Origin: a virus
Virus record (IMG/VR): IMGVR_UViG_3300027714_000001
Location: 32,001-96,000 of that record
Reading direction: 5' to 3' (one strand)
DNA length: 64,000 bases
The position numbers were made by a program, and so were the translations under genes. The notes under the pieces are model-generated. The model saw only the letters and a list, made by a program, of their open reading frames with translations. It was not told the DNA's origin and did no database searches. Shown here piece by piece: positions 10,457 through 60,209 of the stretch; within the stretch, counting starts at the first letter, position 1, and each line of letters begins with the position of its first letter.

Positions 10457-10816
10457 TTGAGTACGACACTAGAACAAGACTGGCGGGCATACAATAAAAA
10501 AATGCGTCGTCAATGTATGCACCAAGCGCAGTTTAATACTCTTAGAGAGTACGAAAAGTACCGAAATGGTACGCTTAAGTATACTAAAGAATTTACGGAG
10601 CTAGAGAAAAAAGATATAATATATCGTAGAAATGCTGCTCCCTCCCCTAAAACATTAAAGCAACATCCACTACCTAACAAAAACCCAACTGCAAAGATTA
10701 AATCCCCTGAGTACACAGGCACACTAATCAAAGGCATTAGCACAATGCACAAAAGTAACGCAGTTCCGGTTATTAATACCCAAGAAATGATTGACCACGC
10801 AAATATGCGGAGATAG
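10457..10816 (+). CDS. Conserved phage hypothetical protein
   Basis: C-terminal GISTMHKSNAVPV...ANMRR resembles a family seen in large phages; has its own promoter. Confidence 0.55.
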   Translation: MSTTLEQDWRAYNKKMRRQCMHQAQFNTLREYEKYRNGTLKYTKEFTELEKKDIIYRRNAAPSPKTLKQHPLPNKNPTAKIKSPEYTGTLIKGISTMHKSNAVPVINTQEMIDHANMRR

Positions 10817-11694: not shown

Positions 11695-12312
11695 AATTAT
11701 TATACTCTTAGAGTAAAAAATAGCACCGGGGGAACTTTGTGTTATATACATTTCAAAGAAGAAATATCTACAATTAGAGGTTACAGCTACACAGCCTCTT
11801 ATAAAAACAGGGATAAGCCCATATTTTCTTGCACTATACATTATATCTCAGATACCGAGGTATATTTGGGGGGTGCTATTGGCGTATGGGGAACAAAAGT
11901 ATTTAGAAAGTTGGCCACGGGTCTATCCCTTAGAGGCATAAAGCTAATAAGGTATGAACGAAACAAAGAATTAAAAGAAATAAATATAACTCGTTACGAG
12001 TAAAAAGGAAAATAAAATGATTAGTGAAATTAATTTAAGTACACCTAAAACTACAGGAATAGTTGTGCCTACCTCAGCAGATTTCGTATTGCTACATACC
12101 TCAAAAACTAGAAGGTACTTAGAAGTAATAAATAACTCTGAGCAGGTAGTAGAGTTTGCCATAGGACAAAATTCACCTGCAAACGAAGACTATATAAAAG
12201 TAGGAGAGAATGGGCATTGGGCAGCAACACACACGGAATTCTTTTCTTCTATAACTAGTATTAAACTGTGGTTAAAAGCACCAGAAACTGCTAGTATCGT
12301 AATTATAAGCTA

Positions 12313-13359
12313 ATGGCTTATAGTTACTCTGGGCTACTTAAAAAAAGCTTTTCTTTCAATGAAATAAGTCTCCTATTTCCCCTGAGTTCAGAAGTTGTAA
12401 CTGATATTATTAAAAGGTTCTTTACGCCACTTCTAGGCTCAGGTGTGCAACATTATACCCATAACACCATTACTATGAGTGCAGATTTTGAAATAGAAAT
12501 AGATTATAAATTATATAATCTAACAACCGACAATGCATTAATCGGAGATACGGACGCACTCAGCGGGGATATTTGGAAAATTAACAAAGATAACAACAGT
12601 ATGCTTATAAGAATCGGAGGCACTACTTACACGACTACAGGCTCATACACGGAAGATTTAAAACTAAATACAGCTAAAATGACAAGAGTTGGCACCACAG
12701 TTAAGGTTTTCAGGAATGATGTAGAAATATACTCCGACACGATAGCCCTTGCTGATTTTACTATTGATATGGTTGGTACTAGACAGAATGGGGCTTATGA
12801 TTCATTTAGCGGGATACTTGCTAATTATAAAGTAACTAATATTGCATCTTTGGTTATGGACGCGCCACTTGACAAGCAGTACACAGCATCAGCGCCTACA
12901 GTTATAAATAAAGCCGATGCAAATAACAATCTGACAGCCGTTAACCTTGATAATGCTGGGTCTGAGTTTACTGCTAGTGATACGTATGGGTGGTTAGGTG
13001 AGAATAATGTCGGAGCACCAACTCGTATTTCCGATGACTGGACTAATAATGGAGATGGGAGTTACACGATAGATACACCTGACGGAAATTATGGCGACTG
13101 TGAACTTCAATTTGGAGTTAGCGAGGTGGGTTTCACGTATTTTGTTGAAATAACTATGAATGAGCCAACTGGAAATTCTAACCTTAGAATGAGGAGCTCC
13201 TACCCAAATATTGATTTTACTACAGCGGGTGATTATTCAAAGTTGGTAACAGCTCTCTCTTCTGCATGTCCAAAATTTAATAGGCGTGGAGGCGCTCATG
13301 CTTTTGCTCAAACTCTTTCTAATCTATCTAACAGACAGGTATTGGAGGTTGCATCGTAA
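12313..13359 (+). CDS. Beta-rich protein with a probable ConA/LamG-like domain
   Basis: Thr/Asn/Gly-rich, 'TRVGTTVKVFRND...VGTRQNG..SFSGILANYKV' pattern; middle of a 3-gene cassette (12017-13805). Confidence 0.45.
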   Translation: MAYSYSGLLKKSFSFNEISLLFPLSSEVVTDIIKRFFTPLLGSGVQHYTHNTITMSADFEIEIDYKLYNLTTDNALIGDTDALSGDIWKINKDNNSMLIRIGGTTYTTTGSYTEDLKLNTAKMTRVGTTVKVFRNDVEIYSDTIALADFTIDMVGTRQNGAYDSFSGILANYKVTNIASLVMDAPLDKQYTASAPTVINKADANNNLTAVNLDNAGSEFTASDTYGWLGENNVGAPTRISDDWTNNGDGSYTIDTPDGNYGDCELQFGVSEVGFTYFVEITMNEPTGNSNLRMRSSYPNIDFTTAGDYSKLVTALSSACPKFNRRGGAHAFAQTLSNLSNRQVLEVAS

Positions 13360-14553: not shown

Positions 14554-14631
14554 GTCCCCATAGCTCAGTCTGTGTAGAGCGTTCGACTCATAATCGAAGG
14601 GTCACTGGTTCGAATCCAGTTGGGGACACCA
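14554..14631 (+). tRNA. tRNA-CAT (probably Ile2)
   Basis: GTCCCCA/TGGGGAC acceptor, TCGA-CT-CAT-AA-TCGA, ACCA. Confidence 0.9.
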
Positions 14632-14892
14632 AATTCTTAAAAAACTTATTGACAAGAATATTAAATCTTGCTATAATAGTTATCTGGAATCGAGAAAGGA
14701 AACGAAAAATAACCGAGTCACTATAAGTGATCCCGATTTATTGCCGTAGGATAGGTAGTACGTAACCGAAGCAATACGACCCTGGAGTGTCAAGCTACAA
14801 ACACTGGGCGTTATACCTGAAAAAACAAACCAAGAGCATGGCCGTATCAGTTCGAAACAACTGGGTCTTCGTGAAAGCCGAAGCAATTTAAT

Positions 14893-14965
14893 AAAAGACT
14901 TTGAAGATAGATTGCTTCTATCCTAAAATACTTGTACAGACAGGCATATCTACTCAAAGTCTTTT
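14893..14965 (+). ncRNA. Stem-closed small RNA candidate
   Basis: AAAAGACTTTGA...TCAAAGTCTTTT 12-bp helix enclosing two hairpins. Confidence 0.55.
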
Positions 14966-14973
14966 CTTAAATT

Positions 14974-15049
14974 GGGGACATAGTGAAACTGGAGATCACA
15001 CGATTCTTCTAAATTCGTATTCGGGGTTCGAGTCCTCGTGTCCCTACCA
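14974..15049 (+). tRNA. tRNA-Arg(TCT)
   Basis: GGGGACA/TGTCCCT acceptor, CT-TCT-AA loop, ACCA. Confidence 0.85.
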
Positions 15050-15050
15050 A

Positions 15051-15141
15051 GCATGTGTAGACCAGTAAGGATCTGGGGCGGCCTGTAAAGTCGTCGTTGC
15101 CGAGAGGAGCCGTGTAGGATCGTTACCTACCACATGTACCA
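15051..15141 (+). tRNA. tRNA-Tyr(GTA)
   Basis: GCATGTG/CACATGT acceptor, CT-GTA-AA loop, long variable arm. Confidence 0.85.
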
Positions 15142-15321
15142 CATTACTACTAGTATCGGAGAATGCTATGAGAGACAAAAATAGTTGGATTGAAGGCACA
15201 GATGTTTAATAGTGAAACTCAGGGATTTATTAAAGTAGGAGTGTGGGATGGTGAATACCATAGAATCTCACAAGACGACTGGCCAGGTGTTTAATTCAAA
15301 GGAACTAGTATAACAAATTTA

Positions 15322-15398
15322 GGGTGAGAAGCTTAAGTGGCATAAGCGACTGGCTGTTAACCAGAAGATAGAAGGTTCGAGTCCTTCCTCTCCCGCCA
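15322..15398 (+). tRNA. tRNA-Asn(GTT)
   Basis: CTGG-CT-GTT-AA-CCAG, GCCA. Confidence 0.9.
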
Positions 15399-15404
15399 CA
15401 TTAT

Positions 15405-15479
15405 AAGGACGAGCATAAGGTATGCGTCGGGTCTCCAAAATCTTGAAAAGACAGAGTTCGATTCTCTGCGTCTTTGCCA
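15405..15479 (+). tRNA. tRNA-Trp(CCA)
   Basis: AAGGACG/CGTCTTT acceptor, CT-CCA-AA loop, GCCA. Confidence 0.8.
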
Positions 15480-15517
15480 AATCCTCTACCTTAGGATAGC
15501 ACATTAGATTGTGTACT

Positions 15518-15540
15518 AGCCCACTTCGGTGGGCTTTTTA
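15518..15540 (+). terminator. Rho-independent terminator
   Basis: AGCCCAC-TTCG-GTGGGCT followed by a T run. Confidence 0.9.
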
Positions 15541-15676
15541 TCCTTCTAAAATAACTTATAAATGTTCTTGCTTAAACGCTAATTGTTTGCTATAATATGT
15601 TTCTGGAATCAAGAAAGGCTTTAGAAAATTTTGAACTTTATAAATGTTAACTCTCTCATCTTAGGAAAATAAATTA

Positions 15677-15997
15677 ATGAAGAAAATATTATTAGCAGTA
15701 ACATTAGCCACGATGTTAGTATCGTGTGCAGACAACAAAGTATTACCCCATTATGGAGAAGTAAAAACTTATGGACTAGTTGATGCAAGTGCAGTAAAAC
15801 TTCCTTGTGTTAATTATGAAGTAGCTATTGGAAACGTAATCTGGTCAGCTATTTTTGCCCCGACAGTAGCAGTCCCTATATACATGGTAGGCTTTAGTAT
15901 TATGGAACCGACAAGTGTTGACGAGCTTTGTATGATAAAGACATTTGATGAAACCGAAGTCGGCAACTTGTTTAGAGAATACGAAAAAACTTTGTAA
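15677..15997 (+). CDS. Lipoprotein
   Basis: MKK + hydrophobic stretch + LVSC lipobox. Confidence 0.65.
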   Translation: MKKILLAVTLATMLVSCADNKVLPHYGEVKTYGLVDASAVKLPCVNYEVAIGNVIWSAIFAPTVAVPIYMVGFSIMEPTSVDELCMIKTFDETEVGNLFREYEKTL

Positions 15998-16516
15998 AAC
16001 TTCTTGACTAATAGCCAATAACTCGGTATAATAGTTCTAGAAATTGAGAATAAAGGCTAAAGCAATTTAGTCTAGCCATACGCTTGAGGCTTAAGATAGC
16101 GGGGTCACTTTCAAGACCTATACTATGAAACAGATTCTATAGTCTGTAAAACTCTGGGGTCTAGTAGTTATGTGTCTCCTTAACAATACTACCGATTCAG
16201 TCACACTTCGTATTCAGGGTGATAGTTGGCTACTTAATGCTAGACGCGGGTACTTAGTCTATAAAATATAGTATCAGGGGATTAACTGGCCACTTTACTT
16301 AGCAGTTCGGGAGATCGTCACAGGAATAATGAGCCTGTAAATAAGTGGTGCAAGAGCGTAGAAGTTATAATAACGTGTCCACTCTAATCAACAACTTAGA
16401 AAATAACTTAAAAAACAACTTGCATAACGACTTAAAAATCGGTATAATAGTTTTAGAAATTGAGAAAAGAGAGAAAAACTTCTCCTTGAAAAAGCGGTAC
16501 TTCACATCTTTTCTCA

Positions 16517-16629
16517 AATTTCTAATGTAAGAATCACTGGTAGACAATTCTGCCGTTGACTATGCTTCTTCAGGGGGTGTCTTCTCTAGTAACAACTTAG
16601 GTTGGAGAGTGATTCTTACATTAGAAATT
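16517..16629 (+). ncRNA. Stem-closed small RNA candidate
   Basis: Perfect 22-bp terminal inverted repeat AATTTCTAATGTAAGAATCACT, downstream of a promoter, no credible ORF. Confidence 0.65.
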
Positions 16630-17237
16630 AAAATAACGCAGCAGACCTCTTGTAGGATTGATGAAGCGGAAATAAATTTTTAAAAGACTTGCATAACGGC
16701 TTCAAATCCGGTATAATAGTTTTAGAAATTGAGAAAAGAAAAAGAAACGAGTAGCGTGCGAAAGTGATGTTTTTTCTTTTCTGAAAGTTAGGGTAACGCT
16801 CGTGCACTGAGTGAAGGTTCAACTCCTTCTAGTAAATTTCTATTATGCAGGGTACAGTAACCTGACGATGAAAAATACTGAAACCTTTTAATATCCTAGT
16901 AATAAAGTAAAAAGATTCTAGGTAATCCTTCTGGCGATTCAAGTCTTAGATAGGCGGTGAGAAGTGTATTATACAGATGCGTCCGCGACCAACCAACTAA
17001 CACAAAGAATGATACGTAGCCATTACGTTAGACTGCAAACCGTTAAGGGCAGGCCAAGCTCCTAAGAAAACAATCTTGGAAGGCTTATACATATATTGCT
17101 TAGCACTTTGCTCCCTAAGTCTAGTGTGGAATCTATACAGAGGCAAATGCCTCTTTCAGGTCGAAATACCTAGACACACGAAATTGCTAGTCAGCGCAAT
17201 TAAAGATTAACTGATATACAAAGGTGTGACTCCTTTG

Positions 17238-17318
17238 TCCTTATTAAAGCGTATCTTGAAAGAGGAATAAGAACCTTACGCTGTGATAGCATCCTGCGGT
17301 AGTACGCTTTAATAAGGA
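17238..17318 (+). ncRNA. Stem-closed small RNA candidate
   Basis: Perfect 16-bp helix TCCTTATTAAAGCGTA/TACGCTTTAATAAGGA. Confidence 0.6.
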
Positions 17319-17416
17319 AAGTTGTTCAACGGCAGCTCAAAGCGGCATAAAAGATTAATGCAAGGTAAATATTGTTTTCCTTGCGCTTTCCTTAACTACT
17401 CAACAAAGGAACAAAA

Positions 17417-17770
17417 ATGGAATACACAATAAAGTGTGATACGCTAGACGTAAAAATGGTAGTTAAAGTTTTAAATAAGGAAAAGTTTGAAGCAGCCATG
17501 ACAAAGACAAATAAGTTTTGGAGTGGAAGCGAAGGAAGAGCTCTGTGTTACGGGGGACATGTACTGGCAGGACTTAAAATGTTTGCTCAAGAATGTCTTC
17601 AGCAAATCGCCTTTAATAACTTTCTTAATGGAGATTACTTAGAATATAAGTTTGATTGGAGCAAAGAAAACCAAGGTATTGAAGGCTTTTATAATTTCGC
17701 TACAGCAGGACTGAAAGTACTGGAAATTAATTCTTGGTTTGTCTGTACTGATGAAATAGAAATAAAGTAA
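17417..17770 (+). CDS. DUF2528-like phage protein
   Basis: N.FWSG...R......G..LAGLKMFA...FDW...EGF pattern; good SD. Confidence 0.45.
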   Translation: MEYTIKCDTLDVKMVVKVLNKEKFEAAMTKTNKFWSGSEGRALCYGGHVLAGLKMFAQECLQQIAFNNFLNGDYLEYKFDWSKENQGIEGFYNFATAGLKVLEINSWFVCTDEIEIK

Positions 17771-17813
17771 AAAACTTCTTGACTAAATACTAGAATCCCC
17801 GTATAATAGATTC

Positions 17814-17959
17814 TAGAAAGTTAAGAAAAGAGATTAATACGAAGCAAGATTTACTCACTTGTTTTTATAAAGGGCGGTTTTATAGTATTGTAAACGTCTA
17901 AAGGAAGAAAGGGTACAGAGTTCTTCACTATAGTTTTAATTTCTTTTCTTAATTTTCTA
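17814..17959 (+). ncRNA. Stem-closed small RNA starting at a promoter +1
   Basis: 24-bp helix with two G-U pairs: TAGAAAGTTAAGAAAAGAGATTAA / TTAATTTCTTTTCTTAATTTTCTA. Confidence 0.65.
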
Positions 17960-17989
17960 TGCACACTAGCTTCGGCCACATAGTGTAAG

Positions 17990-18960
17990 AAAGTTAAAAC
18001 CCTTTCTGTCCAATAATCAACGTAAGTCCTGACCCAGGCATTGTAGGGAGAGAGGTGCAATTCCTACCATATCCACGAGTAACGGTCAGTTTACTGAACT
18101 AACTCTAGGGATAAGGTAGATTAAAGCAGGGCGGTTTAGCGTCCTTAAAATAACCCACTGAAAGGTGGAAAAGGTAACTTGTCAGGTTGCCGCTGTGTAG
18201 GCTCCGGTTTACAATAGTTTATCTAGACAAGCACAAGTTTCATTCCGTAAGAATGTCTTTGAGTCTAAAATCAGAGATAGCATTAAAAGGAACGAGCGTA
18301 GGTACTCCCGACAGGCGAGTATAGCGGCTAATAACCAAAAAGCCAAAATTAGACATGGGGACATATTTAAACCTGCAATCCACTCTAGTACGAAATATGC
18401 AAAAACTAATGTGTAGTTGTTTCAGTCCGAGTAGTCATATAAGGGCAGGCAGCAGTAACAAAGAATTGTTTGTAAATAGACAATCCTTAAAATACGGTGG
18501 AGTAGCGGGAACGCGAAAGACAATGTGGTGTGGAATATTTTGTAAGTCAAAAGCTTACGAACTCCTGACGGAACACATCGCAGACAACTAAATAACGCTA
18601 TTGGTTAGCATTTGACTCTTAATCAAACTATCGGGTTCAATTCCCCATTAATCAAAAGTTTCCGTCGGTACGTTATCGAAAGATTGCTAATCCCTGACAA
18701 TAATGAATCAGGGCATATAAAGGTCGAAAGCCTGCATATGTTTACAACGTAGATAAATTTAGTCTCTTAGCGGAGAGTAACAGCCCTAAAGGTTGGAAGG
18801 AATCGAAATGTAGAGTAGATACGTATGACAGTCTTATATGCTTACAAGACTTTAAAGACAAGCGCAATCGGTGGGATACTAGGGAGACCTAGTGGATACG
18901 CAGCTAACTCATATGGCTCGCAAAAGACCTGCTACTAGAAGCCTTAATCTCAGGCTGATA
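17990..18960 (+). ncRNA. Probable GOLLD-like giant structured ncRNA (boundaries approximate)
   Basis: About 1 kb with no credible ORF inside a phage tRNA cluster, many hairpins, 3' end ...GGCTCGCAAAAGACC...TAATCTCAGGC reminiscent of GOLLD (from memory), embedded tRNA-like module. Confidence 0.6.
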
Positions 18961-19084
18961 TAAATTAACTCTTTAGAGAGTATTTATGGGGACACTTTAG
19001 CTTTACCTAAACGCGAATAAGGTATAAATTATAGTAAAGAAGTTGAAGACTAATGCATTAGTTGGATGGACTAAAATATTATAA

Positions 19085-19318
19085 TTGCTAGAGTCCCACC
19101 ATAAGTATTTTAAGAGCAAAAAAAAATTGTCAGCTACCCCTAGTTGGTCTGAGAGTACTGCAATAGGAGAGTTTTACTTTAATTGTCCTATAGGTTATCA
19201 TGTAGATCATATAGTGCATTTACAAGGGCTGATAGTTTGTGGCTTGCATGTGTTAGATAACTTACAGTATCTAACAGAAGAAGAAAATTTAACAAAAAGT
19301 AACGCCTTTATCGTATAG
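19085..19318 (+). pseudogene. Truncated HNH endonuclease
   Basis: YHVDHIVHLQG..VCGLHV..NLQYLT.EEN..KSN; N-terminus missing. Confidence 0.75.
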
Positions 19319-19381
19319 TCCGGTCAATTACGCTGGTTTTGTAATCCAGTTACGTAGGTTCGAATCCTGCTAGAGGCACCA
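19304..19381 (+). tRNA. tRNA-Thr(TGT)
   Basis: GCCTTTA/TAGAGGC acceptor, TT-TGT-AA loop, ACCA. Confidence 0.85.
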
Positions 19382-19387
19382 AATTAC

Positions 19388-19681
19388 ATTTGACGTAATG
19401 AAACACTAAGTTCTTGCTAAAATACTAGTGTTCCACCGTAACAAGTAGTCTCCTCAACAGGATGAAAGCGACAACGGAACTAAGCAAACAAATACATATA
19501 AGGTTCGATCCCTTTTCTCTGGTGAGTATATGTATGAACAATAGAATTACTGTTCATCTTACATGTAGAATGGTTCATAGCCAGCTATTTTGTACAATGA
19601 ATAACATACCGTAGAGCAAGTCGCACTTGCTAAATATCTAAAGATATGATTTAACAGGTTTCTTTAGACATTACCTCAAAT
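19388..19681 (+). ncRNA. ~295-nt stem-closed structured RNA candidate
   Basis: ATTTGACGTAATG/CATTACCTCAAAT terminal helix, internal T-loop-like AAGGTTCGATCCCTT, no ORF. Confidence 0.5.
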
Positions 19682-19701
19682 TTAATTTAACAGGAAAGAC
19701 A

Positions 19702-20019
19702 ATGAAGAAAATAGCAATAACAGCCCTTACATTAGGAATGTTAGCTTGTAGTTCTTCGAAGTCTACATTAATTAACGAAGATCATACAAGACTAAACATG
19801 GAAATAAAAGTTCATGTTTTTAAAAACAAGAAGCTATTAAATAGCGCACTAAAAAAAGAGTTTCCTCGCGAAATAAGAACTGTAGAAGGTTTTGCAGTAT
19901 GGTATAACACAGTAGAAGATTACTGCGAAATATATGTTACTAAACCAGACTCTAAGTTTGACATTAACACTTGGGGACATGAGCTAGCACATTGTGTGTA
20001 TGGCAGTTGGCACGACTAA
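19702..20019 (+). CDS. Lipoprotein with HExxH motif
   Basis: MLAC lipobox; GHELAHC. Confidence 0.6.
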   Translation: MKKIAITALTLGMLACSSSKSTLINEDHTRLNMEIKVHVFKNKKLLNSALKKEFPREIRTVEGFAVWYNTVEDYCEIYVTKPDSKFDINTWGHELAHCVYGSWHD

Positions 20020-20251
20020 ACAGAGAAAAAACAAATGGTATTTACAATTTTATTAGTATTAGCAGTCTTTGCTGGAGCATCGTTCCACAAAGAAATCACA
20101 GTAGCAAAACACGTAGTCATAGGGCTAGTAAAAGGTGTCGTACAAAAGTAATGATTGAAGGAGTTGCATTAATAGCAGTAGTATTCTTAGGACTTTATAT
20201 AGGTGATGTAGAAAATTATTTACGTGCCTTAGTAAAGAGGAAATAAACAGC

Positions 20252-20330
20252 GCGGCGGTATGCTAATCTCGGTAACGCAATGAGACTTAAAATCTTATGA
20301 TTGAGGGTTCGACCCCCTCTCGCCGTACCA
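20252..20330 (+). tRNA. tRNA-Leu(TAA), short variable loop
   Basis: TGAGA-CT-TAA-AA-TCTTA, T arm, ACCA. Confidence 0.8.
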
Positions 20331-20725
20331 AATTAAGGAGCAGTAATGCTTAGACGTAAAGAAGTAATTGTAGTTCCAGAAGGTGAATTAAAAGAAAAGC
20401 TCTTAGCTCTTATAGCCGAGGATCAAAAAGCTCCGACAGTTTTGACAGCCAGAAAGTTGTGGCGATATTTAAGAAAAGAAATATGTTCTAAAGAATCAAT
20501 ACACTATCGCTACCATAACAGAACAGAGTTACTAGAGATATGTGAAGGTTCTTCTAAAGACTTCTGGATGAAGTATACTTGGAATGTGTGAGAAATGTCT
20601 TTATGTATCTTGGATAAGAGGATATAAACTAAAACAGATTAGAGAACATTTCCCTAATCAAACTAGTATGTTATCAGATAGAGATATTCAAGACTCATTT
20701 AAAGTAATGATAACTAAAAAACTAT

Positions 20726-20808
20726 GCGTGGGTGGCTAATACAAATTGGCACAGTTACTGGGTTTAGAACCCAGGCCTTTGAGGGTTCGAGTCCCTCTCC
20801 GCGTACCA
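20726..20808 (+). tRNA. tRNA-Leu(TAG), short variable loop
   Basis: CTGGG-TT-TAG-AA-CCCAG, ACCA. Confidence 0.85.
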
Positions 20809-20813
20809 AATAT

Positions 20814-20888
20814 AGTCGATTAGCTCAAAGGCAGAGCAGTGGTGTTACATACCAAAGGTTGGGATCTCGGAACTCCCATCGACTACCA
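20814..20888 (+). tRNA. tRNA-Val(TAC)
   Basis: AGTCGAT/ATCGACT acceptor, GT-TAC-AT loop, atypical T loop. Confidence 0.8.
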
Positions 20889-21603
20889 AGTATTTATTCA
20901 CATCAAGTTGACAAATGTGAATAAATATTTTAACTAAAGGAGAGTACACATGAAATTAGAAACATTTAATATTTTAATGTTCTTAGTAGAAAAAGTAGAA
21001 TCGGTAGTGTCAGACATTTCTGTAGCTACAGGTGGCATGTCATTCCAAGAATGGAAAGACGCAGGAGAGCCTAGCTTTAATAGCTCTAAAACCGAGGAAG
21101 ATTAATGGCCACTGAAGCAAAAGTTACCACAGACTATTACTTATGGCCCGATGGAGACTCGTTCCCCTGTGAAGAAGGTGAGCTGTCTTGGAAGTCTGAC
21201 GATTATGTCATAGTAGAGATACCTTCTTCTTACGAAGGATGCCATGAAGACTACCTAGAAGGTATGCACATGGAAATCAACTTAGGTCAAATGTGCGAGC
21301 GCAAGACTATTGTATAAGAAATTAAAGAAAGCGAATAACAAACATTGGAAATATTTGTTTGGGCTGCTTAGCGGTAAACATGATGTAGTTATAAAAAGCA
21401 CATGGGAATCAAAAGCTACAGGCAAAGAAGAATACGACTTTGGAAAAGGTTGGAATAGATACTACAGCTTTAATATATTGCTGCCTGATTTAAATGACCT
21501 AATATTTGACGACACTATTTTAGGTGAAGAAATAACAGGGTTTGACGTAGACCCTGTACAAAAGTTTGATGAAGTAGATCGTTTATCAAACAAGTAAAAG
21601 CAT

Positions 21604-21678
21604 AGGAAAGTAGCTGAGATGGATTAGCGCGGGTGTGAAGTACCCGAGACGGCAGATCGTTACTGCCCTTTCCTACCA
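21604..21678 (+). tRNA. tRNA-Phe(GAA)
   Basis: AGGAAAG/CTTTCCT acceptor, CGGGT-GT-GAA-GT-ACCCG. Confidence 0.85.
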
Positions 21679-21758
21679 AATTTATTAAAAAACATGTTGC
21701 ACAATAACCGATAATTCGGTATAATATGTTTCTGGAATTGAGAAATAGCGAGAAAAAT

Positions 21759-22259
21759 ATGGATTACTTTATTGGTGATACCCACTTTGGACACCAAAAT
21801 ATCTTAGAGTTTGGCAGGCCAGGGTATAAAGACATTGAAGATCACAACGAGACTTTAGTGTCAAACTGGAACTCAGTAGTAACTCATAAGAACGACAGAG
21901 TTTACTTAATGGGTGACGTAGCTTTCTCTAGTCAGTACCAGTATTTAGCTAGACTTAACGGTAAGCTAACTATTGTGTTAGGAAACCACGACTACCACAG
22001 CAAAATAAAGATTATTCAGGACATTAGACCTGACGTTAGATTGTGTGGAGCTGTAGCATACGACAAGAGTTTTATCTTAACACACATTCCTGTACATCCT
22101 AGTCAGCTAGAGCACAGGTACAGCCACAACATTCATGGTCACTTGCACAGTTTCAAGATTGACGACCCTCGTTACATTAACGTTAGTTGTGAACAGATCA
22201 ATTCTACTCCGATTTCAATTGAAGAAATTAGAAAAAACATATTGACAGACAGCCAATAA
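21759..22259 (+). CDS. Calcineurin-like metallophosphoesterase
   Basis: GDTHFGH, GD, GNHD, TH, HGHLH motifs. Confidence 0.9.
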   Translation: MDYFIGDTHFGHQNILEFGRPGYKDIEDHNETLVSNWNSVVTHKNDRVYLMGDVAFSSQYQYLARLNGKLTIVLGNHDYHSKIKIIQDIRPDVRLCGAVAYDKSFILTHIPVHPSQLEHRYSHNIHGHLHSFKIDDPRYINVSCEQINSTPISIEEIRKNILTDSQ

Positions 22260-22735
22260 TTCGGTATAATATGTTTCTGGAATCGAGAAAGGAAACAAAA
22301 TGTATAGATTATTGTATAAAGGCGTAATTCATGATGTTCATTGTGATTGGTTTATTTTGCACTCAAAAATGTGTAAAAATATTAAACACCACAGCTGGAA
22401 TGTTGATTTCTGTGAGATAGTATAATGAAAAAGTTTATGACTAAGTTATTTACTTTCCTGTACTACACCATTCAGTTTGTAATACTTTATGGTATATTAC
22501 GTCCCCTAGTAGGAGTATGAAAATGGATAAAACTGATATATTATTTATTATATTAATAGTATTTTTTATAGGATTAACTGCGGTTAGTGTAAACACTGTT
22601 ATAAACACTCCGCAAGAAAAGGTACAGTGTGAATGAAAAATAATGTAATACTTCCCATACTAAAAGTAGTGTCAGCAATACTAGTAATGGTTTTAATATG
22701 TGTAGTTGCCCTAAGTATAAATACTTAAAAACAAT

Positions 22736-22810
22736 GCGGGCTTGGTGTTAATGGTAGCACGTTGTCCTTCCAAGTCAAATGTGCAGGTTCGAATCCTGTA
22801 GCCCGTTCCA
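22736..22810 (+). tRNA. tRNA-Gly(TCC)
   Basis: GCGGGCT acceptor start, CT-TCC-AA loop, TCCA. Confidence 0.9.
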
Positions 22811-22817
22811 AATTATA

Positions 22818-22890
22818 GCAGAATAGCTTATGTCAGGACAAAGCGTATCCTTCGGGGTAAGAATTCGGTTCGAATCCGATGTATGCGATC
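22818..22890 (+). ncRNA. tRNA-like RNA whose anticodon loop is a cUUCGg tetraloop
   Basis: D arm, TATCC-TTCG-GGGTA, TCGG-TTCGAAT-CCGA T arm, weak acceptor. Confidence 0.6.
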
Positions 22891-22897
22891 AAACAAA

Positions 22898-22973
22898 TAC
22901 GTGATAGTTTAAATATGAAAAATACAGGCCATTGCGGCTAGAGATGCTAGTGCAAGTCTGGCTCACGTAACCA
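22898..22973 (+). ncRNA. tRNA-like RNA with a non-canonical anticodon loop
   Basis: Perfect TACGTGA/TCACGTA acceptor plus ACCA, GCTAG-TGCAAGT-CTGGC T arm, GCC-ATTGC-GGC 5-nt loop. Confidence 0.65.
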
Positions 22974-23149
22974 AATTATTATAGTAAACTGGTTAATCCA
23001 CTAATCAAAAATGTAAGCTGCATACCAAAAATTTGCAGGTCAGCGTTGGTTCGCTGAGTAGGATTGATTACCCTATTACTTAATTGTGTATATTTGAGTC
23101 CCAAGAGGTCTTATGCAACAAATAATTGACTAGTTTACTATAATAATTT
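22973..23149 (+). ncRNA. Stem-closed small RNA candidate
   Basis: 25-bp terminal helix with two G-U pairs enclosing several hairpins. Confidence 0.65.
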
Positions 23150-23188
23150 CATAAAGAGATAAAAATGATCAAAGTAATTGGTAACAAC

Positions 23189-23262
23189 TTTCCCTTAGTT
23201 TAATGGTAGAACTATACCCTTTCAAGGTATCAGCGCGAGATCGATACTCGCAGGGAAAACCA
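23189..23262 (+). tRNA. tRNA-Glu(TTC)
   Basis: TTTCCCT/AGGGAAA acceptor, ATACC-CT-TTC-AA-GGTAT. Confidence 0.85.
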
Positions 23263-23350
23263 AATTCAAGAGTAGAAAAAGGAAATACATTATGTGGGTA
23301 GAAGTAGAAGTAACAACAACAAAAACACATTTAGTAGAAGTAGACAAGCT

Positions 23351-24058
23351 ATGAAAACCGCTCTGTTCCTATTCGACTACACAGGCATTATGGCAATGCC
23401 TTGGGCTGAGGCGGGATATAGCTGTCTTTGCATAGATTCGCAACATCCCAAAGGCAACACCCCATCTAAAGTGCATAAAAATATAATCTTTGTAGGTCTA
23501 GAGATTAATGTTGATATGCCCATATTTCAGATTAGAAAGCTAACAAGTCACATACCTGACTTTATATTTGGATTCCCTCCTTGTACAGACCTAGCAGTCT
23601 CAGGAGCAGCACACTTTAAAAAGAAAGCGGCAGTAAATCCAAACTTTCAGAAAGATGCAATAGCATTATGTAGAACAGTAGAAACCTTGGGCAATCACTT
23701 TGACAGGCCCTGGGCATTAGAAAACCCCGTATCAGTATTAGCTACGCAATGGCGTAAACCTAACTTCTACTTTCACCCTTACGAGTTTGGTGGATATTTA
23801 CCAGAAGACGATAAGCACCCTTTTTACCCTGAGTACCTACCTCCTAGAGATTGTTACAGTAAAAAGACAGGTATTTGGCACAATGATAAATTCATAGTTC
23901 CAACTAAGTTACCTGTAGAGCTTATGACAAAAACTGGAGAATACTCAGCAATGTACTCTAAACTAGGGGGTAAGTCTATTAGAACGAAGAACATTCGTTC
24001 AGCAACTCCTAGAGGTTTTGCAAATTCTGTATTTGAAGCTAATAAACTTGTTGACTAA
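23351..24058 (+). CDS. DNA cytosine-5 methyltransferase-like protein
   Basis: LFDYTG, FGFPPCTDLA (catalytic PC), ENP, KKTGIW, RSATP.GFA. Confidence 0.8.
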   Translation: MKTALFLFDYTGIMAMPWAEAGYSCLCIDSQHPKGNTPSKVHKNIIFVGLEINVDMPIFQIRKLTSHIPDFIFGFPPCTDLAVSGAAHFKKKAAVNPNFQKDAIALCRTVETLGNHFDRPWALENPVSVLATQWRKPNFYFHPYEFGGYLPEDDKHPFYPEYLPPRDCYSKKTGIWHNDKFIVPTKLPVELMTKTGEYSAMYSKLGGKSIRTKNIRSATPRGFANSVFEANKLVD

Positions 24059-24485
24059 CAGCGCATTGTTTGCTATAATATGTTTCTGGAATTGAGAAAA
24101 GGAACAAAAAATGTTTGTAAAAGTAATAACCGAAGGTGATTGTGAGGGAAGAACTACTAAAACAGTAGCTATCTTTCAATGTGATAATGAAAGACAAGTA
24201 GCCTCTTACCTGCTAGCTAATAAAATCAAACCTTATTACCATTTTACGTTTACTCAAGTTCGTAACCCTTTAGAAGATATTAGAAATTACGAAGTACCTG
24301 CAAATCTAGTTTTAAGCACAGATAACTATGGCAGAGCTAATATCTCTACTGGAGAGACAGAACAAGAACTGTTTATGAAAACATTAAACGCAGAACAGTT
24401 AAGAAAGTATAAAAAACTTATTGCAAAGTAACCAAATCTTTGCTATAATATGTTTCTGGAATTGAGAAACAAACGATTATTTAAA

Positions 24486-24562
24486 CTGGGTGTGGTGACA
24501 ATTGGACGTCTACTTGCTTTGGAAGCAAGGTCATGTGGGTTCGAACCCCACCTCCCAGACCA
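24486..24562 (+). tRNA. tRNA-Pro(TGG)
   Basis: CTTGC-TT-TGG-AA-GCAAG, ACCA. Confidence 0.9.
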
Positions 24563-24767
24563 AATTTAAAAACTTCTTGACTAATAACCAATAATTCGGT
24601 ATAATAGTTGTAGAAATTAAGAAAAACCTACCCACTATACAATACACCAATAAGGGTACGCCCTCGCCTTAATGCAAGGTATAAGACAGAGTAAGTTATA
24701 GGGCGGCAAAGAAGTTGCGACAGATACTTCAAAAATCATCTACCTAGTAGGTGTCTAATCTTTAACT

Positions 24768-24842
24768 GGTGGTATAGTATAACGGCAATTATGACGCGTT
24801 GTCTGCGCGAAGATCGGGGTTCGATTCCCCGTACCACCGCCA
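24768..24842 (+). tRNA. tRNA-Asp(GTC)
   Basis: GGTGGTA/TACCACC acceptor, CGCG-TT-GTC-TG-CGCG, GCCA. Confidence 0.9.
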
Positions 24843-25145
24843 CTTTAGGAAATACAATGTTTGAAATGATTAAACAATCACCAGACTACTTTCAGATTAA
24901 TACAAAAACAGGGAAATCAGTCGGTGAGATATACAAAGAATGTGATGGTCTTTATGTGTTCTCATTCACAGATACACCTAGAGGTTGTTTTGCAGGACAT
25001 TTCTTTAACTTTGTAGGTACTAGACTTAAAGAGCTAAATGCAGAGTTTTTAGCAGAGACAGAAGAATACTTCGAGGAACAAATGAGAAAGCAACTTGCTA
25101 AGTCTTTTCATAACCCCTTTTGGCCTGTATATAAGTAATTATTGG

Positions 25146-25222
25146 TGTGAGCGTGGCAGAATGGATGATGTCCTTGATTGTGATTCAAGATCATGCGGGT
25201 TCGAGTCCCGTCGCTCACCCCA
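25146..25222 (+). tRNA. tRNA-His(GTG)
   Basis: GTGAGCG/CGCTCAC acceptor, CTTGA-TT-GTG-AT-TCAAG, CCCA. Confidence 0.9.
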
Positions 25223-25233
25223 ATAACTATTTC

Positions 25234-25311
25234 GCGTCGCTAACTCAAATGGTCTAGAGTATCCGGCTTTTAACCGGAAGGTTCCCAGTTCGAGTCTGGG
25301 GCGACGCACCA
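25234..25311 (+). tRNA. tRNA-Lys(TTT)
   Basis: GCGTCGC/GCGACGC acceptor, TCCGG-CT-TTT-AA-CCGGA. Confidence 0.92.
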
Positions 25312-25432
25312 ATTTGGCAACTAAATAGCGTAAGGAAATCCATTGCGAGCGCTACAAAAGTTTTAGTTGCAAGTCTTTCGATAAACTTAGTCCAATATGG
25401 ATAAGGAAGTTGAAAGGCGGATCTATTTCAAT

Positions 25433-25515: not shown

Positions 25516-25590
25516 ACTCCTGTAGCTTAACGGCAAAGCGCAGGCTTCTAAACCCTAGAAATGGGAGTTCAACTCTCCCCAGGAGTACCA
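25516..25590 (+). tRNA. tRNA with apparent CTA (amber) anticodon and weak anticodon stem
   Basis: ACTCCTG/CAGGAGT acceptor plus ACCA, canonical D and T arms, CAGGC-TT-CTA-AA-CCCTA. Confidence 0.65.
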
Positions 25591-48091: not shown

Positions 48092-48782
48092 TTTTTAATT
48101 CTCTATCTAAGTAAGTGCTAATTATAGCTTTTTTGGTGGTTTGTGTCAAGTGTTTATTTAAGCTATTTTATAAATAAATTCTCTTTGCTCTCCCCATCCA
48201 ACACAAGTATTATCTCATACCCTTTCAACATTGTCAACCCTTTATTTTATTTTGTTTTAAATTTAATTTAAAACTAACTCTGTACCGATTCAACACAAGT
48301 ATTATCTCATAAATACGTTGGGTTGTCAAAGACCGTTTTGGTATAGCTTTGCTTGTTTTTATACCAAAACGGTCTTGACAGGCGTTCCGCCGCGCGCGGC
48401 TCCTGCGGCCCTGTCAAGTTTTTATTAAAAATAAAATTCTTTCTAGTGTGTCTATTTCGCCCGCTATGTAAGCTAATCTGTACGCTTTTTGTCGGGTGTT
48501 TTCTCTCTCATTAGTTACTAGTTTATGCGTGTTTCTTGCGATTTTTAGCTCTTTTTCTATTATTTGTTTTGGCAACATCTTTTTTCTCCTTTTTGTGAAA
48601 TTTTAAATAGCATTCGTATACGCTTAAATATTCTTCGGCTTCCTGATTTACATAGTTTTTACCTTCAAGATAGACGCAAACGGATGCCTCTTGCTTGTAT
48701 GTTTCCCAATAATTGGCAACGGCTTCAAGGCTAGTAAATACACCATGAACTTCTAGATACTCTAGTGCAACATAAATCATTA

Positions 48783-58229: not shown

Positions 58230-60209
58230 ATGAAATATAATACTAAGTTATTAGCTAAATTACAAGTAGTTAAAGATCATGAAGAAGATGAAGACGAGTT
58301 AGTTATCGAAGGATACGCTAATACCGTAACTAAAGATAGAGCAGGAGATGTTATACTACGCTCAGCGTGGGAAACAAAAACCGCTATGTCTAACTTCTTA
58401 AAAAATCCTATTATACTAGGCTACCACGATCATTCAAACCCTATAGGGGTTATGTTAGGTTATGAAGTTGATGACCTAGGCCTTAAAATTAGGGCTAAGA
58501 TTAGTAAGGGAGCAGGACGAGTATACGATCTAATAAAAGATAAGGTATTAACTACCTTTAGTGTTGGATTCAACATATTAGACGCAGAGTACGATGAAGT
58601 AAAAGACATATTCTTTATTAAGGATGTAGAACTACACGAAATATCTGTTGTATCGGTTCCTTGTAACCAAGACTCAACATTTTCAGTAGCAAAAAGTATG
58701 GACGCTCAAGATTATGAGCAATTCAAAAAAATATTAGCGCCGGAATCAGGCGAAACAAAGGAAGAAAAAATGACACTCGAAGAAATTAAAGCATTGGCAG
58801 CCGAGCTAGCTAAAGCAAACACCCCAGTTAAAGCTGATCCCGTATTCGACGTAGTTGCAGAAGCTACTAAAGCAGCAGCAGCAGCTGTAGCACAAGCAGA
58901 AGCAGTTCGTGTAGCTAAAGAAGACGCAGCAGCAAAATCTGCTACAGACCTAGCTAACAGCAAAGCAGAAGCTAAAGCAAACGCTATGGAAGCAGCTAAA
59001 GATTTAGTTGCAGAATTAGAAACTAAGTTAAGCGCAAAAGATTCAGCATTTGCTGACCTTGTTAAAGCTAACAACGACCAGATCGTTTCTCTTAAAGAAG
59101 AAATTGCTCAAGTAGTTGCATCTCGCTCTAACAACGTAACAGCTATCGCAAAGGGCATTAACGGACCGTCGTATGACGCCAAAGCAATGGGCGATACTGC
59201 AGACAACCTAATGTTCTTAAGCACAATTAAGAAAGTAGATATGTTTGATACCGAATATGGTAAGAGCATCAAAGCTATCAACCAATCTTCTAGCATTGAA
59301 GTATCTGGTGAAGGTTATGAGACTACTTTCTCTACTAACTTATATCGTGACATTCAGGCATTGTTAGTTGTTGCACCCTTATTCAATGAAATGAATATGA
59401 CTTCTGCACAAATGACATTCCCAATCAATCCAAATCGTAGCACAGCTACTTGGATTTCTGCAAGTAACATGGCAGACAACACAGCTAAAGCCCGTACAGG
59501 TGAAGCATTAACTGTTGCGCTTACTGAGATTACACTTAAGACCTTTAAGCTAGCTGCTAAAGTATACTTAACTGAAGAAACTCAAGAAGATGCTATCATG
59601 GCTCTTGTACCTATTTTACGTCAACACCTAGTAGAAGCTCATGCAGCATCAATCGACGCAGCATTCCTAGTTGGTGACGGCGCAAACAAGCCAAAAGGTC
59701 TTGTTACACAAGCCAAAGCAGCAGGCGGATTACAGTCTCTAGCGACAGCAGCAAACACTACTAACGTATTAGTAACTGCAGCAGGTATCTTAGAAGCTCG
59801 TAGAGGTTTAGGTCTATACGGAATTAACCTTTCAGAACTTTATGTTGTTATTTCACAAGACGCTTACTGGGATCTTATCCAAGATGCAGATTGGGCTGAC
59901 GTACAGCAAGTTGGCGTTTCTAACGCAACTAAGCTAGTTGGTGAAGTAGGTAACATTTACGGAATGAGAGTTCTAGTATCTAGCGGTTTTGCTGATAAAA
60001 CATCTGGCGGAACTTACGCAATCCTACTTAACTCAAGCAACTTCGTTGTTCCACGTCAACGTGGCGTAACAGTACGTAGTGACTTTGAAGTAGAGCTAGA
60101 CCGTACAGTATTCGTTGCAACACAGCGTCTAAACTTACAACCTTGGATCGAAGAAACTGCAGGCAGTGGTAACGGTAAAGGTGTAGTAGCAGTTAACTAC
60201 GCAACATAA
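58230..60209 (+). CDS. Prohead protease - major capsid protein fusion
   Basis: HK97 protease motifs (IEGYAN..KDR.GD, HDH, FSVGF, EISVVSVP), Ala-rich delta/scaffold segment, T5 pb8-like capsid domain. Confidence 0.92.
   Translation: MKYNTKLLAKLQVVKDHEEDEDELVIEGYANTVTKDRAGDVILRSAWETKTAMSNFLKNPIILGYHDHSNPIGVMLGYEVDDLGLKIRAKISKGAGRVYDLIKDKVLTTFSVGFNILDAEYDEVKDIFFIKDVELHEISVVSVPCNQDSTFSVAKSMDAQDYEQFKKILAPESGETKEEKMTLEEIKALAAELAKANTPVKADPVFDVVAEATKAAAAAVAQAEAVRVAKEDAAAKSATDLANSKAEAKANAMEAAKDLVAELETKLSAKDSAFADLVKANNDQIVSLKEEIAQVVASRSNNVTAIAKGINGPSYDAKAMGDTADNLMFLSTIKKVDMFDTEYGKSIKAINQSSSIEVSGEGYETTFSTNLYRDIQALLVVAPLFNEMNMTSAQMTFPINPNRSTATWISASNMADNTAKARTGEALTVALTEITLKTFKLAAKVYLTEETQEDAIMALVPILRQHLVEAHAASIDAAFLVGDGANKPKGLVTQAKAAGGLQSLATAANTTNVLVTAAGILEARRGLGLYGINLSELYVVISQDAYWDLIQDADWADVQQVGVSNATKLVGEVGNIYGMRVLVSSGFADKTSGGTYAILLNSSNFVVPRQRGVTVRSDFEVELDRTVFVATQRLNLQPWIEETAGSGNGKGVVAVNYAT

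Follow-up and report, generated by a model that had tools for sequence, protein, structure and literature searches.

What is the role of the long, AU-rich helices scattered between the transfer RNA (tRNA) genes of the virus IMGVR_UViG_3300027714_000001, and do they act as RNA at all? The window, i.e., the whole stretch of 64,000 nucleotides (nt) analyzed here, corresponds to bases 32001-96000 of this complete IMG/VR virus of 106,179 base pairs (bp), which has direct terminal repeats. Judged from its gene content, the source is a distant marine T5-like phage (Demerecviridae): it carries ribonucleotide reductase, DUF2528, nicotinamide/nicotinate phosphoribosyltransferase and a prohead protease-capsid open reading frame (ORF), its capsid is 47% identical to that of T5-like Vibrio phages, and its gene order agrees with that of Vibrio phages D260 and D239. 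The tRNA cluster, at 14.5-27.2 kb of the window, contains at least 20 tRNA genes, broken up by small ORFs and ORF-free stretches, the latter holding only short ORFs scattered over both strands; G+C content in the region is roughly 34-41%. An original prediction, made from the letters of the window, had described at 14690-25372 a family of promoter-driven small RNAs closed by long AU-rich terminal helices. The reading that we favor, at a probability of about 0.6, is that these helices are plus-strand RNA structures bounding ORF-free, independently folding modules of the tRNA cluster, which would be counterparts of the stable RNAs of phage T5 and subject to processing by RNase III.

The ten helices were re-checked by a mechanical pairing test, and pairing was found at or near the predicted positions in all ten. 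They are listed here in the form in which they were finally read, together with the cargo that they enclose and the z-score of the local fold.

14884-14974, plus strand: clamped module 1; helix of 21 positions (20 Watson-Crick pairs and one U.C mismatch), 49-nt two-hairpin cargo, z -6.7
16453-16525, plus strand: leader hairpin; the promoter leader pairs with 16507-16525 over 9 bp, extended to 17 bp if one bulge is allowed, z -3.8
16517-16629, plus strand: clamped module 2; perfect 22-bp helix, 69-nt cargo with three predicted hairpins, z -6.3
16732-16782, plus strand: leader hairpin of 13 bp with 1 G.U
17238-17318, plus strand: clamped module 3; 17-bp helix (16 Watson-Crick pairs and 1 G.U), 47-nt cargo, z -5.1
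17313-17394, plus strand: adjacent helix of 10 bp, ending 22 nt upstream of ATG 17417, z -2.9, weak alone
17814-17959, plus strand: clamped module 4; 24-bp helix (2 G.U), 98-nt multi-hairpin cargo, z -6.9
19382-19687, plus strand: module 5; helix of 19 positions (17 Watson-Crick pairs, 2 pyrimidine-pyrimidine mismatches), 268-nt cargo with a T-arm-like piece, z -2.8
22973-23149, plus strand: clamped module 6; 25-bp helix (2 G.U), 127-nt cargo, z -6.1, with tRNA-Glu 39 nt downstream
25317-25371, plus strand: small hairpin (9 bp + 5 bp) in the interval between tRNA-Lys and tRNA-Met, z -3.9, within chance by stack length

The perfect 22-bp helix and the 24- and 25-bp helices, each with two G.U pairs, stood as originally described, while the remaining descriptions were adjusted in part. 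The 12-bp helix first placed at 14893/14965 is present and longer than announced, extending over 21 positions at 14884-14904/14954-14974 with its single mismatch, and the 16-bp perfect helix of 17238/17318 reaches 17 bp when one G.U is counted. At 19388-19681, pairing was recovered and the register was not, only 6 uninterrupted bp being formed as first drawn; the register 19382-19400/19669-19687 given above was read by eye from the sequence, and module 5 is weaker than modules 1-4 and 6. The helices are indeed AU-rich, with 3-5 G-C pairs per 17-25 bp, and neighboring helices do overlap, sharing 16517-16525 (9 nt) and 17313-17318 (6 nt); when the whole 16453-16700 transcript is folded, the minimum-energy structure contains the complete 22-bp helix and a shortened leader hairpin. 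The cargos differ, as had been proposed: the ORF-free units that hold them were unrelated in an all-against-all blastn, where the sole match between units was the common leader. With only some half of the listed helices significant one by one, the word family was an overstatement; the units share an architecture and not a sequence.

Five of the helices (14884-14974, 16517-16629, 17238-17318, 17814-17959, and 22973-23149) are individually far beyond chance. In a census of all uninterrupted stacks of Watson-Crick and G.U pairs over the whole genome, with a span of at most 450 nt, only five stacks of at least 17 bp with at most two G.U were found in 106 kb, and four of these five are located here (22973/23149, 17814/17959, 16517/16629, and 17238/17318), the fifth being a short-loop hairpin at 48329. 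No such stack occurred in ten dinucleotide shuffles of the genome, in which the maximum was 16 bp. In line with this, the five strong modules had local fold z-scores between -5.1 and -6.9, and the other five between -2.0 and -3.9.

The strand on which the helices form bears directly on their nature. When the minus strand is read instead, fewer than 14 bp remain of the 24-bp helix and 18 bp of the 25-bp helix, since the deviations within them are of the G.U kind on the plus strand. Over the five strong helices of the window, 5 G.U, 0 A.C and 2 other mismatches were counted, all G.U being in the 24-, 25-, and 17-bp helices, so that the RNA-level nature of the helices, put forward in the original prediction, is supported, on the plus strand, both by the loss of minus-strand pairing and by the transition-type deviations. 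When fifteen clamps (from the window, the Vibrio phages, the metagenome contig L035, and T5) were considered, one mis-registered row having been dropped, 17 G.U were found on the transcribed strand versus 3 A.C, an excess that is suggestive, because helix detection itself somewhat favors G.U. These counts speak against inverted repeats acting at the DNA level only, whether as cassette scars or ends, as elements resembling miniature inverted-repeat transposable elements (MITEs), or as recombination or cruciform sites, with no role as RNA. The 22-bp helix is perfect, and therefore carries no strand information, which leaves room for such repeats; the arms, however, differ between units, there is no common terminal repeat except the leader, and the helices are found only in transcribed ORF-free stretches, some of them starting from the transcription start (+1). 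We regard this explanation as very improbable. A MITE-like element was in particular rejected, as arms and cargos all differ and the leader is the sole common sequence.

Transcription of the region is indicated by near-consensus sigma-70 promoters of the T5 type, which stud the tRNA cluster and are each followed by a conserved leader, TATAAT-AGTTTTAGAAATTGAGAAA or TATAAT-ATGTTTCTGGAATTGAGAAA. The first leader type has 10 matches in the window, where 0.4 would be expected; with a broader leader pattern, in reverse complement, the count is about 20. The +1 sites were placed by rule, 7 nt past the -10 hexamer; the rule was checked on the annotated T5 promoter P13b, which has a related leader and whose annotated 75-nt feature fits a +1 located 7 nt beyond the -10 hexamer. 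The modules are confined to ORF-free stretches of the tRNA cluster, downstream of these promoters with T5-like leaders, of which the following precede the modules discussed here.

14649-14677, plus strand: promoter with conserved leader (TTGACA-17-TATAAT, 12/12), driving an ORF-free transcript, 14684-14973, that ends at tRNA-Arg
16420-16448, plus strand: promoter with leader (TTGCAT...TATAAT), predicted +1 about 16455
16689-16785, plus strand: promoter, leader and the 13-bp leader hairpin 16732-16782, with a tRNA-like T-arm next to it (16813-16829)
17779-17807, plus strand: promoter of the transcription unit of the phage RNA GOLLD (TTGACT-17-TATAAT), predicted +1 about 17814

The leader serves as the 5' strand in three of the ten helices (16453, 16729/16732, and 17814), where several had been announced. 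A trans-acting anti-leader was also considered, and no ungapped anti-leader copy was found on the plus strand. The sole clear terminator in the 14690-25372 range is located at 15518-15535.

The outer ends of the helices coincide with sites where RNA ends are expected. The 17814 helix begins at the predicted +1 and the 16454 helix within 1 nt of it, while the 16729/16732 helix begins at about +6 to +9. At the other modules the borders are those of tRNAs: 19382 is the base directly past the CCA of tRNA-Thr, 22973 is the last CCA base of a degenerate tRNA-like element (22900-22973), and 14974, the 3' arm end of module 1, is the first base of tRNA-Arg. This arrangement would be expected if the helices were end clamps only, pairing termini made by transcription start, RNase P and tRNA 3' trimming, and shielding the RNAs from exonucleases, RNase E and RppH without any part for RNase III. 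The 3' end of T5 RNAIII, which coincides with the RNase P site of tRNA-His, fits this explanation too. Regular helices of 22-25 bp are nevertheless generic substrates of RNase III, and other T5 RNAs, described below, have ends that such clamping does not account for, so that end clamping without RNase III is in our view unlikely, although it deserves the most attention among the alternatives.

The comparison with T5 is the one that gives the modules a context. For the tRNA region of T5, the record NC_005859 lists eight RNAs as "stable" or tRNA-like (RNAI, RNAIII, RNAIV, RNA2H, RNA1-3, and RNAX), under the long-standing label "stable RNA with unknown functions". The same census of stacks, applied to T5, placed RNAIII in a 20-bp helix (2 G.U), RNAIV in a 17-bp helix and RNA2H in a composite helix of about 25 bp, in agreement with the proposed likeness to the uncharacterized stable RNAs of T5. 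The annotated mature ends of these three RNAs lie inside the helix on both strands, as follows.

T5 RNAIII: 12 bp of clamp kept in the mature RNA, with a 2-nt 3' overhang in helix register
T5 RNAIV: about 7 bp of clamp kept in the mature RNA, with a 1-nt 3' overhang
T5 RNA2H: about 10-12 bp of clamp kept in the mature RNA, with a 2-nt 3' overhang and a bulged G

Such mid-helix ends are the signature of a double-strand cut of the kind that RNase III makes. In RNAIV and RNA2H, they are set back from the helix ends by 9-13 bp on either strand and are not near any tRNA, which argues against end clamping alone. A search of the available literature on the processing of T5 stable RNAs yielded nothing relevant. 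The T5 RNAs and the modules of the window have in common that they are ORF-free, that they lie between tRNAs and T5-type promoters with a related leader in a Demerecviridae tRNA cluster, and that an AU-rich precursor helix of 17-25 bp closes a multi-hairpin core; they differ in that three helices of the window take the promoter leader as their 5' strand. Since homology to a named T5 RNA is lacking, by sequence as well as by model, membership in the T5-type stable RNAs rests on architecture and context. The only homology to named T5 RNAs found by blastn was a T-arm of 20 nt: the T-arm-like hairpin at 16811-16830 is identical (GTGAAGGTTCAACTCCTTCT) to positions 10520-10539 of T5 (L041), within RNA1. 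The segment 16722-16870 was considered as an RNA1 homologue and rejected, as just the T-arm matches, the rest does not align, and the tRNA-like fold is no better than in shuffles. As for T5 RNAX (L041, 20849-21567), this 719-nt, promoter-driven RNA ends at tRNA-Arg and contains a tRNA-like stretch at 21433-21504 (38 bits).

The same design was found in other phages, where it could be followed through its changes. The tRNA clusters of D260 and D239 open with tandem promoters that have a similar leader and each drive a short ORF-free RNA, and several of these RNAs are closed by helices of 14-22 bp (at most 21 bp on the transcribed strand) around cargos of 50-130 nt. Between D260 12646-12788 and its positional counterpart D239 12304-12445, the cargos are partly homologous, and the clamp arms differ by about six two-sided changes that keep the pairing in the same register; such maintenance of pairing by compensatory changes is not expected of repeats acting as DNA. 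In another unit, unit C, compared between D260 and the lineage of D239, D426 and 294E48.1, the clamp shows two one-sided changes, each giving a G.U, and a cargo hairpin shows four two-sided compensatory changes. A further stem-plus-cargo unit, present in D239 (L006, 3271-3365), is cleanly absent from the near-identical D426 (L050, about 953-1000) and from 294E48.1; it sits between the leader and the same downstream RNA, a slot filled in D260 by unit C. Because of this clean presence or absence, the modules behave like cassettes, in line with the modularity originally suggested, here seen in the Vibrio phages; clean presence and absence would also suit DNA-level elements. On metagenome contig L035, with the same type of promoter, a 21-bp helix and an overlapping 15-bp helix were found, ending 7 nt before a tRNA.

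In another explanation, the helix would be functional and the cargo incidental, a situation known from the lambda N leader and from the RNase III sites in the early mRNA of T7; the helix would then split a polycistronic RNA or tune the translation of the downstream gene. The 17238-17394 and 19382-19687 modules are indeed directly upstream of ORFs, the former 22 nt before its ATG, the latter stopping 15 nt upstream of ATG 19702, and module 3 lies in the 5' untranslated region, roughly 690 nt long, that precedes the DUF2528 gene. Moreover, while the T5 RNAs are 75-100% identical across eight T5 relatives, the clamp arms of RNA2H are invariant among them and its cargo diverges with insertions and deletions, a pattern that suits the favored reading as well. 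The compensatory changes in the cargo hairpin of Vibrio unit C point the other way, as do the annotation of the T5 cargos themselves as stable RNAs and the fact that most modules of the window precede tRNAs or other RNAs, not ORFs. We therefore consider control by the helix with an incidental cargo to be improbable.

Several observations weigh against the reading of the modules as RNase III-processed counterparts of the T5 RNAs. The 9-13-bp helices are individually within chance by stack length, since stacks that reach 14 bp with no more than two G.U numbered 8, versus 1-8 in shuffles. The whole transcripts 14684-14973 and 16039-16415 fold no better than shuffles, so that some of the ORF-free RNA is unstructured and the structural signal is confined to the clamped modules. 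Two T5 clamps and one D260 clamp show, on the strand that is transcribed, an A.C in place of a G.U, so that the G.U bias is not absolute. Where a helix starts exactly at +1, simple end protection, with no part for RNase III, accounts for it just as well, and the T5 mature ends were taken from GenBank annotation. The phage genome encodes no RNase III, double-stranded-RNA-binding domain or Ro60, so that the RNase III of the host would be needed; a 13.8-bit RNase III-like match was rejected as a phage candidate because it falls in a DUF7566 protein. Finally, the modules of the window have no detectable homologues in the sequences searched. Megablast and blastn against 50,697 phage records matched just the 3' domain of GOLLD, and protein-anchored scans of IMG/VR led to unrelated contexts without tRNAs. 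DUF2528 homologues with 75% and 66% identity were found on JGI and ENA contigs and were absent from IMG/VR. Leader-pattern scans recovered family-level relatives (L033, L035, and others) that share just the promoters and one unit, 24613-24767, and Rfam searches at E up to 1 on the relatives and on T5 RNAX likewise gave no family other than GOLLD and tRNAs.

That shared unit belongs to the following feature, which has no long clamp.

24577-24767, plus strand: promoter with a 155-nt ORF-free RNA ending at tRNA-Asp

Its homologue, L033 1925-2062, is 71% identical, and 6 of the 21 predicted pairs are kept through two-sided changes, as judged from two sequences only. It had no Rfam match, and a motif scan for it found nothing.

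From a mechanistic point of view, the modules may be formed and processed in the following way. Strong T5-type early promoters, together with read-through within tRNA polycistrons, would transcribe the region. A 5' segment, which is the promoter leader from +1 in three cases and the sequence right behind a tRNA 3' end in two, would then pair with a 3' segment; the resulting AU-rich helix, of 17-25 bp, would enclose and insulate a core of several hairpins. The ends of the modules would be set partly by transcription start and tRNA processing (RNase P and 3' trimming). Where the helix has about 20 bp or more, both strands would most likely be cut mid-helix by the RNase III of the host. The RNA so released, closed by a hairpin stem of roughly 7-12 bp, should resist exonucleases and the 5'-end-dependent RNase E. 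From the length of the helices (21-25 bp) and the analogy with T5, we infer RNase III cleavage in this phage; accumulation of the products as stable RNAs is likewise presumed. Excision by RNase III stands at about even odds and would be favored over pure end clamping, because helices of 21-25 bp are long enough and the annotated T5 ends fit cleavage within the helix. A regular helix of about 20 bp or more, as required of an RNase III substrate, is offered by the helices of 21, 22, 24, and 25 bp and not by those of 9-17 bp.

The 24-bp helix has a further significance, owing to what lies behind it. GOLLD, a phage RNA already known from the neighborhood of tRNA islands, assembles into a 14-mer nanocage (PMC12286853). 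One unit of the window contains it.

18130-18956, plus strand: GOLLD RNA; the 3' domain, 18523-18956, matches Rfam RF02032, and 5' domain homology runs from about 18130

The 3' domain scores 175.2 bits, versus a Rfam cut-off of 150, over the full model (1-416), and the 5' domain aligns with the GOLLD loci of D260 and D239, whose own GOLLD RNAs (177 and 176 bits) occupy an equivalent place within their tRNA clusters. With tRNA genes on both sides, a variable 5' domain and a tRNA-proximal location in a phage, the locus has the context expected of GOLLD. Because GOLLD lies behind the promoter at 17779-17807, the 24-bp clamped module 17814-17959 forms the 5' head of the GOLLD transcription unit; this module has no counterpart in the GOLLD loci of D260 or D239. 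The likeness to RF02032 thus comprises a 3' domain above cut-off, a phage setting beside tRNAs and a tRNA-like piece in the linker; it concerns one unit of the window only, and the 24-bp clamped module is outside the family model. The tRNA-like piece, near 18589-18654, has a T-arm-like GGGTTCAATTCCCC. The Rfam search that had been proposed as a check returned, at E up to 1, GOLLD and tRNAs, and no family for the other modules. The original prediction had mentioned neither GOLLD behind the 24-bp helix nor the neighboring degenerate tRNA-like pieces.

The existence of a class of stable RNAs in T5, unsolved in function, is already known. What is new is that a distant marine lineage has this architecture with unrelated sequences, that the promoter leader serves as one strand of a clamp, that a clamped module heads the GOLLD unit, and that the annotated T5 ends can be read as mid-helix cuts. 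Because a distant marine branch keeps the T5 design with entirely different sequences, the architecture itself appears to be selected: among tRNAs and beside GOLLD, a strong promoter goes together with a folded core that a long AU-rich helix closes. The placement of GOLLD in a complete, well-ordered T5-like genome should also be useful for seeking the function of this RNA. The function of the cargos is plausibly tRNA-related or directed against host defense; their originally suggested role as aptamers or decoys is a guess. A bolder view, which we hold to be a long shot, is that the units are exchangeable RNA cassettes, placed behind early-promoter leaders or between tRNAs and excised by RNase III as decoys, sponges or partners of the GOLLD nanocage. 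If true, this would amount to a modular RNA-based counter-defense arsenal, for example against host defenses that target tRNA or other RNA.

Other known systems resemble the modules in part. The RNase III processing stems that flank 16S and 23S rRNA, or occur in T7 early mRNA, share a long helix of flanking sequences of about two turns; they differ in that the cargos here are small (47-268 nt) and cleavage is putative. Y RNAs (YrlA, bound by Rsr/Ro60 and also present in phages) likewise have a tRNA-like module and a long closing stem, in which the 5' and 3' ends pair; this assignment was rejected, as Rfam gave no match at E up to 1 and the phage genome encodes no protein with a TROVE domain. 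The 5' stem-loop stabilizers of the ompA type in E. coli mRNAs have in common with the 17814 and 16454 helices a position at, or within a few nt of, +1; they are short hairpins, whereas the helix here encloses a 98-nt cargo and reaches 24 bp. Intrinsic terminators were also rejected, as the helices are AU-rich and no T run stands behind any of them.

Some further features of the cluster should be noted. Degenerate tRNA-like elements, overlooked by ARAGORN, are present at 15051-15138 (24.4 bits against the Rfam tRNA model, under the cut-off), 15400-15475, 22815-22891, and 22900-22973, with T-arm-like hairpins at 15452 and 22946. At nearly every tRNA, a conserved AAAT(T) comes directly behind the encoded CCA, so that the sequence reads CCAAAT(T), e.g., at 14629, 19379, 20327, 21676, 22808, 23260, and 24560, and this may be a common 3'-processing signal. 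Between GOLLD and tRNA-Thr, a 77-amino-acid ORF (19085-19318), without a Pfam match, has an HNH-like motif by eye (...HVDHIVH...); possibly, this ORF is the remnant of a homing endonuclease of the kind present in the T5 tRNA region. At 25516-25590, ARAGORN placed a tRNA with anticodon CTA (reported as "Pyl"; Rfam tRNA score 57.6 bits), which would be of the amber-suppressor type. Outside the cluster, a single ORF of 659 amino acids (58230-60209) combines the prohead protease (S78) and major capsid domains, which are two annotated genes in the nearest Vibrio phages.

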